Part shown: positions 1,907 through 20,931 of the stretch, one piece after another
Numbering within the stretch: the stretch's first letter is position 1
Layout of the letters: each line of letters begins with the position of its first letter
From: an uncultured Solirubrobacterales bacterium
GTDB lineage: Bacteria > Actinomycetota > Thermoleophilia > Solirubrobacterales > Solirubrobacteraceae
Assembly (NCBI GenBank): GCA_963811155.1
Contig: CAWEQQ010000011.1
Coordinates: forward strand, 5,138-69,137
Direction: 5' to 3'
DNA: 64,000 nucleotides
Notes under the pieces: model-generated
What the model saw: only the letters and a program-made list of their open reading frames with translations
Database searches by the model: none
What the model was told of the DNA's origin: nothing
Translations under genes and position numbers: made by a program

Positions 1907-2064
1907 GGGCTCCCGCGAAAATTACTGCCGGCTCCGACGGCGTCTGGGCGCGCCTGGCGCCACCGGCTCGCCCTCACTTGCCACCAGCAATATCGGGGCG
2001 AGCCGGCGGCGCCAGCCACGCCCAGCCACTCGCCGGATTCCGGCATTAATTTCCGCGGGAGCCC
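1907..2064. mobile_element. 158-bp miniature inverted-repeat element (type A)
   Basis: TIR GGGCTCCCGCGAAAATTA / TAATTTCCGCGGGAGCCC, TAA on both sides (1904-1906, 2065-2067), near-identical copy at 16024-16240. Confidence 0.85.
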
Positions 2065-4124
2065 TAAGTAATTATGGGGATGATCAACAGTGCGACGATG
2101 TTTGCGACCTTGATCATCGGGTTGATCGCCGGCCCAGCGGTGTCCTTGTAGGGATCGCCTACGGTGTCCCCGGTGACTGCGGCCGCGTGCGCCTCAGACC
2201 CCTTGCCGCCATACGCGCCGTCCTCGATCAGCTTCTTGGCGTTGTCCCACGCGCCACCGCCCGAGGTCATCGAGATCGCCATGAACAGGCCGACGACGAT
2301 CACGCCGATCAGCAGTCCGCCGAGCGCCTGGACGCTGATCAGCCCAACGATCAACGGGACCAGGATCGGGATCATCGCCGGCAGGATCATCTCGCGCTGC
2401 GCGGCGCGCGTCACGAGCCCGACGCAAGTGCCGTACTCCGGCTGCTCGGTGCCCTCCATGATCCCCGGTTTCTCGCGGAACTGGCGGCGCACCTCCTCGA
2501 CGACCGCGCCGCCGGCGCGCCCGACCGCCTGCATCGCCAGCGACGCGAATAGGTAGACCATCAGGCCGCCGATCAGCAGGCCGATCAGCACCGGCGGGCT
2601 GCCGATCGCGAACGTGTACTTGATCCCGACCTCGCGCTGGAACGCGTTGAACAGCACGAGCGCGGCAAGCGCGGCGGAGCCGATCGCGTACCCCTTCGTG
2701 ACCGCCTTGGTGGTGTTGCCGACCGCGTCGAGCGGATCGGTGACGTTGCGCACCTCCTCGGGCAGGTCCGCCATCTCGGCGATCCCACCGGCGTTGTCGG
2801 TGATCGGTCCGAACGCGTCGAGCGCGACGATCAGCCCGGTCAGCGACAGCTGCGCCATCACCGCGACGCCGATCCCGTAGATGCCTATCCCGCCGCCCCC
2901 GGCCAGCTTCCAGGCGCCGAGGATCCCGAACGCGATCACCAGCGCCGGCGGCGCGGTCGACTGAAAGCCGGACGCGAGGCCCTGGATGATGTTCGTCGCG
3001 TGACCCGTCTGAGACGCCCGGGCGGTGCCCTTCACCGGCCCGAAGCGCGTCGAGGTGAAGAAGTCGGTGATCACGAACAGGCAGGCGGTAACGGCGATGC
3101 CGATCAGCGAGCACAGGTAGAGCTTCCACCAGTGCGGCGCCGTCCCGGCCACTGTCAGCTTCAGCGTCAGGTCGTGCATCATCCAGTAGGTGATCGGGAG
3201 GAACGCGAGCGCGGCGAGCAAGCCCGAGGTGATCAGCCCCTGGTAGAGCGCGCGCTCGACGTTCCCGGCCGCCGACCGCACCGCGAACGTGCCAATGATC
3301 GAGGCGATGATCGACAGCGCGCCGAGCACCAGTGGGTAGAGGGCAACCGCCGACTGCTGGCGGAACAGCAGCACACCGAGCAGCATCACCGCGACCGCCG
3401 TCACGGCATACGTCTCGAACAGGTCGGCGGCCATGCCGGCGCAGTCGCCGACGTTGTCGCCGACGTTGTCGGCGATCACCGCCGGGTTGCGCGGATCGTC
3501 CTCGGGAATCCCGGCCTCGATCTTGCCGACCAGGTCGGCGCCGACGTCGGCGGCCTTCGTGAAGATGCCGCCGCCGAGGCGTGCGAAGACCGAGATCAGC
3601 GAGCCGCCGAAGCCGAGGCCGATCAGCGCGTTGATGGCGTTGCGCTCGCTCTCACCGACGATCCAAGTGAGCACGCCGTAGTAGCCCGCCACGCCGAACA
3701 GTGCGAGCCCGACGACGAGCATCCCCGTCACCGCCCCGCCGCGGAACGCCACCCCGAGCGCCTTGGCGATGCCGCCGCGGGCGGATTCGGCGACGCGCGC
3801 GTTGGCGCGCACCGACACGTTCATCCCGATGTAGCCGGCGGACGCCGAGAGCAGCCCTCCGATCAGGAACCCGATTGCGACCCGGATGTTTTGGATCGGG
3901 ATCAGGACGATGAACAGGACCACGCCGACGCCGGCAATCGTGGCGTACTGGCGGTTCAGGTACGCGCGGGCGCCCTCCTGCACCGCGGCGGAGATCGAAC
4001 GCATGCGTTCGTTGCCCGGTGACAGCGCGAGCAGCGACTGCGAGGTGAGAACGCCGTACACGACGGCGGCGGAGGCGCACACGAGCGCCACCAGGACGCC
4101 GTGATGCGTCAGAAAGCTAGACAA
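2064..4124 (-). CDS. hppA: Membrane-bound H+-translocating pyrophosphatase, predicted K+-independent
   Basis: [54 protein letters not shown] carries the Lys of the K+-independent class. Confidence 0.95.
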
Positions 4125-4193
4125 GAAGGTCCTCCGGGGAAGCTCTTAGATGACGACGGCGCGCGTGAGCACGGCCAGCAACGGAAAACGACG

Positions 4194-4237
4194 AAAACGA
4201 AAAGGGCCCGCCGCCCCTAATCTTCGAGCGGAGGCCC
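4194..4237 (-). terminator. Intrinsic terminator-like hairpin upstream of hppA
   Basis: Minus strand GGGCCtCCGCTC-loop-GGGCGGcgGGCCC followed by TTTTCGTTTT. Confidence 0.55.
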
Positions 4238-4359
4238 GGACTGGGGAAGTCTAGCGTGCGCGGCGGCAGGACGTGCGCCCCACGTTTACTCAGTCACCCG
4301 CTGACGACTCTTCGGCGATGGTCGCCGCCTGCGCCGCAACGGCTCCAGCCGCGGCCGAG

Positions 4360-4859
4360 CTACTGGCGGGGCACCCACAGCCGCCCGCTGCGCTGGGCGG
4401 GCCCTGGCTCGCCAGGCTTCGGCGGCGGTGGCTCGGGCGCTTGGCGCCGGCGGGCGCTTGCGCGCCGGCGGGCGCGGGGTCGCCAGGCGGCGCACTGGCG
4501 GCCTGCGGGCCCGCTGCAGGCGCCGAGCCAGAGGCACTCGCCTCAGGCGCCGGCGCCCCCCCGATCCTGACGAACGCCAGCTGCAGCTGGGAGAGCGCGT
4601 CGCGGATCGGCCGCGCCTGCGCCGGCGCGGACTGCTCGACCAGTGGCAGCGCGGCGCGGATCGCCTCGATTGCAAGCCTGACCTGGCCGGGATCGCGCTC
4701 GGACTCCGTGCCGGGTGCCAGCCCGGTTCGCCGCATCCCCAGGTTGACGAGCGTCACCACATGCTCGACGAGCAGATGCTCGACCCGGACTTTCTTGATC
4801 TCGGCCTCGTAGGCCGCGCGCAGCTCCTCTTCGGAGGGCTGGCTCTGTCCAGTGCTCAC
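4360..4859 (-). CDS. Conserved hypothetical protein (DUF1844-like helical domain + Pro/Ala tail), frameshifted
   Basis: SD GGAGGTGA, GTG start, ...EQVRLAIEAIRA-like segment and IRDALSQLQLAFV; the C-terminus GPAQRSGRLWVPRQ* is in another frame. Confidence 0.6.
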
Positions 4860-19810: not shown

Positions 19811-19829
19811 TGAGACGAGTCTAGTGGAG

Positions 19830-19843
19830 CGAACAGATGTTCC
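19830..19843. promoter_or_regulatory. LexA SOS box upstream of uvrA
   Basis: CGAACAGATGTTCC matches the Gram-positive GAAC-N4-GTTC consensus and lies just upstream of a TAGACT -10 (19818-19823). Confidence 0.8.
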
Positions 19844-19884
19844 GGTGCGTGGAATGCCGCTCTTTCGGCGGTTCCCGGAGGCCG

Positions 19885-20679
19885 CTACCCCTCGACGCTT
19901 GTGTACACCTCGTCGAGCAGGCTTCCCCGGTCCGCGAGCTGGAAGTTCTCGGCGAGGTAGCGGTCGGTCTCCTCCCGCGGCGTTCCGTTGAGGGCCATGT
20001 TGAGCGCGATCAGCCGCGCGCCCTCGGTGTCGGACGCATCGCCGGCCTCGCCAAGCGAGACGCCCGCCGCGTCGGCGAACGGCTGGTCGGAGGACGCGGG
20101 AGCCTCGAGCGAATCGACCTTCGCCTCTACGGCCTCGGGCTCCGCGAGCGGCTGCGCAGCGGCCAGCTCGTCCGGCATCAGCTCGAATTGCGGCCGGGGC
20201 GTGACCGCTTCGTGCACATCGCTCAGGTTGCCTTCGAGCAGCTGCAGATCGGCGTTGAGACGATTGGCCCCGGACCGCAGCGACTCGATCAGGCCGCCGA
20301 GCTCACCATCCATCGCGTCCAGCCGTTGGAGCATCATGGCGGTGGATTCCGAGACCTTGCCGACGTATTCGCGCGCCTGCGCGGTGGCGTCCTGGCGGGT
20401 CGCCTGCGCCTCGCTGGTGGCCTCGGCCTTGATCTCCCGCGCCTCGTCCTCGGCCTGACGCTGGATGTCCGCGGCGCTGTTCTCGGCGGCCTCAACGATC
20501 GCGCGGACCTGCTCGCTGGCGGCGGATGCGAGCGTGTCGGTGCGCCGGCGCGCAGACCGCTTCAGCTCGTCGACGTCGTCGGCGAGCTGGCTTAGATGGG
20601 CGTCGACCGCGTCTGGGTCATACCCCCGGCGGCCGATGGGGAAGTCCTTCTTCTCGATGCTCTGACGTTCGAGGGCCAC
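19885..20679 (-). CDS. DivIVA-domain coiled-coil protein
   Basis: IEKKDFPIGRRGYDPDAVDAHL N-terminal DivIVA motif followed by a coiled coil. Confidence 0.8.
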   Translation of the reverse strand: MALERQSIEKKDFPIGRRGYDPDAVDAHLSQLADDVDELKRSARRRTDTLASAASEQVRAIVEAAENSAADIQRQAEDEAREIKAEATSEAQATRQDATAQAREYVGKVSESTAMMLQRLDAMDGELGGLIESLRSGANRLNADLQLLEGNLSDVHEAVTPRPQFELMPDELAAAQPLAEPEAVEAKVDSLEAPASSDQPFADAAGVSLGEAGDASDTEGARLIALNMALNGTPREETDRYLAENFQLADRGSLLDEVYTSVEG

Positions 20680-20773
20680 GCGCTACCTCCCTAGCCGGAT
20701 ACTGACAGCGACCGCAGAGTACCGGACCGGGCTGGGGCTCGCGGCGTTCCGGAGCGTAGCCGGTGCTCAGTAA

Positions 20774-20931
20774 GGGCCCGTTCAAGAATTAGTGGCGGGA
20801 TTTGACGAGTGGCTGGGCGTGTCTGGCGCCGCCGGCTCGGCCCGATCATACCGGGAGTATTTGAGGACGAGCCGGTGGCGCCAGGCGCGTCCAGACGCCG
20901 TCAAAACCGCCAATAATTCTTGAGCGGGCCC
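20774..20931. mobile_element. 158-bp miniature inverted-repeat element (type B, diverged relative of A, opposite orientation)
   Basis: TIR GGGCCCGTTCAAGAATTA / TAATTCTTGAGCGGGCCC; colinear with the reverse complement of 1907-2064; flanked by TAA and TTA. Confidence 0.8.

Follow-up and report, generated by a model that had tools for sequence, protein, structure and literature searches.

Folding transposable elements of the miniature inverted-repeat type (MITEs) whose pairing is maintained by compensatory changes are already known in bacteria, with bcr1, ERIC, Correia and RUP described in this way (PMC3184786; PMC2229807; PMC10969869). RUP, Correia/NEMIS and ERIC/IRU measure 100–200 nt and combine terminal repeats and a target duplication with a long stem-loop, and RUP has been tied by its ends to the insertion sequence (IS) IS630-Spn1 (PMC2229807). 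The element bcr1 of the Bacillus cereus group is mobile, about 155 bp long and subject to compensatory changes that keep its fold (PMC3184786). Here we describe a rod-folding family found in 64,000 nt of DNA from an uncultured Solirubrobacterales bacterium (GenBank assembly GCA_963811155.1, contig CAWEQQ010000011.1, positions 5,138 to 69,137), hereafter the window. Two 158-nt copies, A (1907..2064, folding strand minus) and B (20774..20931, folding strand plus), represent two subfamilies of one gene-less MITE, and across a bacterial class selection acts on the structure of their inner hairpin in a strand-specific way.

The features listed above for RUP, Correia/NEMIS and ERIC/IRU are shared by A and B, as are the length, mobility and compensated fold of bcr1. 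Unlike RUP, Correia and ERIC, the A/B family is GC-rich, has no Rfam or sequence match and carries its folding strand mostly antisense to host genes; its core, moreover, is used with two transposase families and is found end-less as well. In bcr1 the repeat is 5 bp long and the fold cruciform-like, with two stems (PMC3184786), whereas the A/B family has a single rod, a 2–3-bp duplication and identified IS partners. Among complete insertion sequences, those of the ISAzo13 family (PF07592) share with A and B the 3-bp duplication, which is a trait of that family (PMC10045372), a start with G-G-G, and AATTA or AATAA at positions 14–18 in register. They are about 1.3 kb long, while A and B lack a transposase, and the interior hairpin was not seen in the ISAzo13 ends read here. 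Relatives that end in GTG resemble IS630-linked MITEs, with IS630 ends and a TA duplication.

A multicopy family with ISAzo13-type ends

The assembly holding the window is 5.0 Mb long with 68% GC and is 72% complete. By blastn it contains 164 loci of the element, 98 of them full-length (64 B-type and 34 A-type, 16 exceeding 200 nt), which bears out the many further copies expected in an initial annotation made from the letters of the window alone. The same flanking triplet stands on both sides of 79 of the 98 full-length copies, and the left triplet predicts the right: 45 copies are TTA/TTA, 30 are TAA/TAA and 2 are mixed, one of each kind. The target context is C-TWA-G. Copy A lies between TAA triplets at 1904..1906 and 2065..2067 (plus strand). 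Since B has TAA on its left and TTA on its right, its duplication is imperfect. Copies nested within other copies double the TTA or TAA of their host, which allows empty and filled sites to be compared within one genome. In the window, a truncated A-type copy (58475..58772, plus) is interrupted at its own TAA by a 224-nt copy of family D (58494..58717, minus), a related rod-folding family with GGG-type ends and a REP-like unit, and the TAA is doubled at 58491–58493 and 58718–58720. Furthermore, GG..CC remnants of 5–7 nt occur 26 times between identical triplets and 4 times between non-identical ones, as cut-and-paste footprints would; two such remnants, between TTA triplets at 16244..16259 (strand not assigned), are likely excision footprints. 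The family is thus short, non-coding, multi-copy and dispersed, with terminal inverted repeats and a target duplication, as bacterial MITEs are.

An Rfam search over the window returned one tRNA and nothing on the elements, in line with the earlier view that no named family was recognizable, and over 14 related loci it gave, on the element, only sub-threshold miRNA-like hairpin matches. Plasmid sequences and viral contigs held no match to the element. In a literature search whose reach excluded most subscription journals and ISfinder, we found no description of the family, of ISAzo13 MITEs or of a core common to two transposase families.

No mobilizing enzyme is encoded within the window, as already observed. 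The ends of A agree with the best ISAzo13 end at 18 of 24 bases and with the best IS630 end at 10; for B, whose 5' end (20774..20797, plus) is in register with ISAzo13 ends, the better of its two ends gives 17/24 and 9/24, respectively. The genome contains 13 ISAzo13 matches, including an intact copy of 1292 bp (C43:2971-4262) with AATTAG at end positions 14–19 in register, as in B, and a relic that begins TAA-GGGCCC. Within the genus, as many as 22 of 24 bases are identical between ISAzo13 ends and those of the MITEs, and the 3-bp duplication of the A/B copies fits this family as well. A de novo scan for long elements with MITE-type ends found none besides ISAzo13 and IS630. Against this assignment stand the intact ISAzo13 copy itself, which begins GCGC rather than GGGC and has unmatched flanks (TTA/TAA), and the finding of no autonomous element with exactly the ends of A or B in the genome at its 72% completeness. 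Judged by ends, duplications and footprints, A and B are very probably mobilized in trans by an ISAzo13 transposase.

Structural selection on one strand

Copies A and B are of equal length and colinear in opposite orientations, and they differ at 36 positions. On the predicted fold of B, 20 of these belong to pair-keeping changes on both sides, 4 are changes on one side that leave a G-T pair, 2 disrupt a pair in A, and the other 10 lie outside pairs, so that most differences are indeed paired across the fold, as first proposed. The fold is also predicted to favor one strand, again as proposed: RNA folding gives −141.7 kcal/mol for the minus strand of A and −118.1 for the plus strand, and −126.8 for the plus strand of B and −104.2 for the minus strand, while DNA folding of B gives −74.2 (z −14.5) and −57.3 (z −9.9) for the other strand. 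The inner hairpin occupies about 103 nt in A (1934..2036, minus; core model match of 87.5 bits) and 103 nt in B (20802..20904, plus; conserved motifs at 20807–20819 and 20882–20899). The AGTGG/ACGC motif, described earlier as an invariant internal loop, is predicted instead to form a bulged A, three pairs and a G.A mismatch. Its invariance is circular, because the motif was the search pattern; in more distant copies found with a covariance model it varies, with compensation.

Relatives were collected from several sources. Matches to B occur in 21 of 36 genomes of the genus; three unpublished genomes (G025, G030 and G083) enter only such tallies, and their loci were left out of all analyses. 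A core-motif scan of genome contigs gave at least 105 loci (one, L092, being a chance match), and the 80 titles listed from it belong to Solirubrobacterales, Thermoleophilaceae or unplaced Actinomycetota. Of 106 pattern matches, 17 without called ends, mostly at contig edges, were dropped; for each of the 89 elements whose ends were called, the better fold is predicted for the core-oriented strand. Of 151 genomes at each rank, the full-length model matched 16 for the class and 5 for the phylum, and the core model 53 for the order; the model matches used were the best 150 of 207 and the best 150 of 233. Across relatives the whole length is kept at 156–163 nt and the core at 100–108 nt. As a side observation, relatives' copies at L054:1-206 and L076:430-534 adjoin an RNase P RNA gene and a sub-threshold match to a thiamine pyrophosphate riboswitch.

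An alignment of 42 sequences was built from these relatives, with 3 of 45 representatives dropped for mis-called or odd ends (L104, L085 and L036, by length) and the two window copies added. At a mean pairwise identity of about 60%, 93.6% of its cells pair, and 34 of the 47 pairs have changed on both sides, although relatedness of the sequences inflates such counts. None of 500 shuffles reached this covariation, and slid controls paired at 36–45%. In the inner helix all 15 of 15 pairs have changed on both sides, which binding of a transposase to the ends does not explain.

The bias of wobbles toward one strand, raised initially from a few copies, holds in this wider alignment. With the core motif masked and strand-neutral scoring, G-T pairs number 178 and A-C pairs 31; among mismatches, G.G outnumbers C.C (92 vs 10) and A.G outnumbers C.T (145 vs 33). 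More G-T than A-C pairs were counted in 41 of the 42 sequences. The ends of autonomous insertion sequences (n = 13) have no such bias (G-T 6 vs A-C 9), whereas the MITE ends do (67 vs 16); since the terminal repeats share the bias, selection extends to the entire rod. Among new substitutions in A and B, some of them perhaps sequencing errors, the two kinds are balanced (G-T 17 vs A-C 16), and strand-biased mutation was rejected as the source. Because new mutations are symmetric, the bias must have been selected, gained by the lineages that spread. Selection thus acts on a one-strand fold and not only on transposase-binding ends, as had been suspected.

A core with exchangeable ends

One inner hairpin of about 105 nt is bounded by ISAzo13-type ends in 17 of the 42 sequences and by IS630-type ends in 25. 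The latter match several different IS630 elements, with as many as 23 of 24 bases identical, and mostly have TA flanks; among the 89 elements with called ends, 29 are GTG-ended with TA flanks. IS630-like ends with a TA or TTA duplication, as expected of IS630-dependent elements, are thus a property of relatives and not of A and B. Interiors that are 83–91% alike are found with either end type.

Cores lacking terminal repeats were found as well, both scattered and lined up head to tail in genome G212 and singly elsewhere. An imperfect automatic calling classed 13 of 58 sampled matches as end-less. G212 has 17 core-model matches and 9 full-model matches, nearly all of the latter interior-only. 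Among 26 hand-picked end-less units, several at orthologous loci and therefore not independent, 18 end −4 to +10 nt from an opposite-strand stop codon, for which chance would give about 6% by a rough estimate from a different gene call. Three more abut tRNA 3' ends, twice that of tRNA-Ser(GCT), in opposite orientations. In some end-less units (L343 and L365), host sequence has been copied inverted across the hairpin base. The tandem cores of G212 (L206, L219, L285, L289, L293 and L296) keep whole 3' ends at stop codons, with the upstream units truncated, and three of the runs also contain a second, unrelated hairpin unit. As the source of the core, a conserved host gene following guaA was considered and rejected, its exact pattern being present in 1 of 301 genomes of the order, plus L129.

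End-less hairpins downstream of genes and in tandem are also known as REP, REPIN and CGTC repeats, and CGTC repeats, too, are without a dedicated transposase (PMC3733652). The core described here is about 105 nt rather than 20–40 nt long, has no unpaired GTAG or CGTC tag and has no RAYT in 13 genomes, and the MITEs, unlike REP and REPIN sequences, have a target duplication. We tentatively consider that the hairpin may be a portable single-strand module that would spread end-less to stop codons and tRNA 3' ends and be refitted repeatedly with ISAzo13 and IS630 ends, its fold working in mobilization.

Further units accompany the family. Copy 16024..16240 (minus) is an A element of 217 nt, flanked by TTA at 16021–16023 and 16241–16243, in which 5 nt of the right-arm core motif are replaced by a 64-nt REP-like unit (16064..16127, minus). 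Such units, of 64–66 nt and replacing 5–6 nt in MITE cores, are found in the window at 16064–16127, 49794–49906, 53408–53483 and 58517–58592; they lie on the folding strand in 34 of 34 in-MITE copies and also occur alone or in tandem. The unit at 53408–53483 is in frame in a methyltransferase-like open reading frame, which we take to be prmA-like. No RAYT was found that could move these units. Two more rod families, one for each end type, were seen in the genome: D, of 165 nt with 38 loci (G000 C7:72069-72233, GGG/TWA ends), and E, of 159–161 nt with 22 loci (G000 C7:76908-77068, GTG/TA ends), both with an apical GTAG-N5-CTAC hairpin. Insertion has rebuilt stop codons at 1907–2067 and 16021–16240. 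The last base of A and its duplicated target form the TAG stop of a pyrophosphatase gene, the first base of copy 16024–16240 completes the TAG stop of its upstream gene, and stop codons are overlapped by 22 of the 98 full copies. The 30-nt tandem repeats at 28047–28225 and 37468–37604 are unrelated to the element.

Orientation to replication and rival explanations

Between co-directional genes of the window genome, which were called with a home-made gene caller, the folding strand is antisense in 28 cases and sense in 13 (B, 19 vs 4; A, 9 vs 9). The folding strand of B is antisense to both neighbors, a DivIVA-domain gene and the 3' part of uvrB, as the initial annotation had it; that of A is in sense orientation to its neighbors. 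On these counts a function in host mRNA was rejected.

In relatives, with the origin set at dnaA, its usual position in Actinomycetota, 45 of 53 copies have the folding strand as leading-strand template (p ~2e-7, kin not being independent). This count leaves out G423, which has two strong dnaA matches (C1:1467421 and C3:771829), and a single copy located where the terminus of G426 is predicted. For the 41 copies with flanks read, the leading-template orientation is found in 16 of 17 convergent or divergent gaps, in 14 of 14 copies antisense to their genes and in 6 of 10 sense copies. Integron attC sites provide a precedent, in which a purine-skewed fold of single-stranded DNA (ssDNA) is retained on the leading-strand template (PMC5371416); unlike A and B, these sites serve a tyrosine recombinase and have no duplication, and the likeness is an analogy only. 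Orientation biases of IS families have been ascribed to interactions with the fork in a source where the ISAzo13 data are too few (PMC3971601). The orientation to replication leans toward ssDNA over RNA, and we slightly favor the view that the fold acts as ssDNA.

We hypothesize that the MITE, with its ISAzo13-type ends, is moved by an ISAzo13 transposase from elsewhere and that its inner hairpin is kept pairable on one strand, most probably owing to folding of that strand as ssDNA at the fork, a composite reading for which we hold belief and doubt in equal measure. More specifically, a transposase encoded elsewhere in the genome would cut and paste the element in trans, the inner hairpin would fold as ssDNA at the replication fork, and folding would join the two ends and so promote excision or the passing of the element to the transposase. 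Copies whose folding strand lies on the lagging-strand template would for that reason be lost faster, so that the other orientation would be enriched among old copies. Such a loss would fit a bias that is weak in young bursts and strong among old, scattered copies.

Several observations weigh against this hypothesis. The GC skew of forty 20-kb pieces is too noisy to confirm the origin at dnaA. In the window genome, with its many near-identical copies, the replication bias is weaker (46 vs 26) and confounded with the antisense-to-gene orientation (19:4 in agreeing, 3:4 in conflicting and 15:11 in neutral contexts), and family D leans the opposite way. In ten other genomes, same-contig copies agree in orientation in 65 of 113 pairs (p 0.07). 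Tolerating about 10% G-U pairs is just as characteristic of structured RNA, and we know of no ssDNA step for IS630 or ISAzo13 transposases.

A possible, though less probable, account keeps the same MITE and transposase and lets the fold be selected as RNA, either as a small RNA of its own or as a structure processed from read-through transcripts, as in Correia and ERIC. The G-U pairs, bulges and compensation resemble structured RNA, end-less cores sit at gene 3' ends, and MITE transcripts are described as processed by RNase III and RNase E (PMC10969869). Contigs of four soil RNA libraries contain relatives of the element with flanks, but these contigs are unstranded and may include DNA; in 22 RNA runs, each contained at most 15% of the words searched. 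The folding strand, however, lies mostly outside host mRNA, with the sense and antisense counts given above, end-less cores are antisense to the abutted gene in 18 of 26 cases, and a role as RNA would not predict an orientation to replication.

It is unlikely that the fold has no function, the palindrome being kept by template switching from arm to arm, which would mimic compensation, while lineages that weaken the same strand survive because they are safer at the fork. This account would accommodate the replication bias, the symmetric new mutations and the inverted host sequence at L343 and L365. It leaves unexplained the bulged A and the G.A mismatch kept across the class, as well as the fixed core and whole lengths and the motifs retained at 60% mean identity, and total loss of the palindrome would be safer still.

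Still less credence is due to the core as an independent mobile hairpin with its own enzyme, selected for its fold during its own spread, with MITEs formed secondarily between IS ends. End-less cores in several families, dispersed or in head-to-tail runs, their abutment on stop codons and tRNA 3' ends, and the near-alike interiors between either end type speak for it. On the other side, no HUH transposase was found in 12 genomes and the integron integrase TIGR02249 in none of 20 (a weak test, as no control genome matched either), the terminal repeats share the G-T bias, and end-less units could be processed or trimmed MITEs.

Mobilization by an IS5/Harbinger-type or HUH (RAYT, IS200) enzyme, the links first drawn, is most improbable: the TWA duplication in C-TWA-G context would also suit IS5/Harbinger, but the ends fit ISAzo13 and IS630, PF13340, PF13586 and PF13359 had no match in the 72% complete genome, PF01797 had none there (0/1) or in further genomes (0/12), and HUH enzymes are not known to make a variable duplicated triplet. 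PF01609 had 16 matches in the genome, of which the IS701-like one was read. That copy lies by a 158-nt variant with the same ends and a shifted, different interior (G000 C22:79341-79498); it has other ends and is inserted at the variant's edge, and IS701 was rejected as a partner. Elsewhere in the genome, an IS630-family element with a 3-bp TTA rather than TA duplication is inserted in the duplicated target of a MITE (G000 C58:51161-52418), and an ISAzo13 copy is interrupted by a reverse-transcriptase gene, presumably of group II intron type judging by its motifs (G000 C45:5100-9300).

The usual reading of MITEs is one of passive end pairs that bind a transposase, their stable folds being by-products or regulators of mRNA. 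Here the interior is selected by structure and strand, persists when the transposase family changes and has an orientation relative to the replication fork. If the hairpin were a portable single-strand module, it would imply that DDE transposition includes a single-stranded step or that the hairpin is a non-autonomous mobile element of a new kind. The family offers a compact, testable substrate for asking why bacterial MITEs fold and how the transposases of ISAzo13 and IS630 encounter their DNA.

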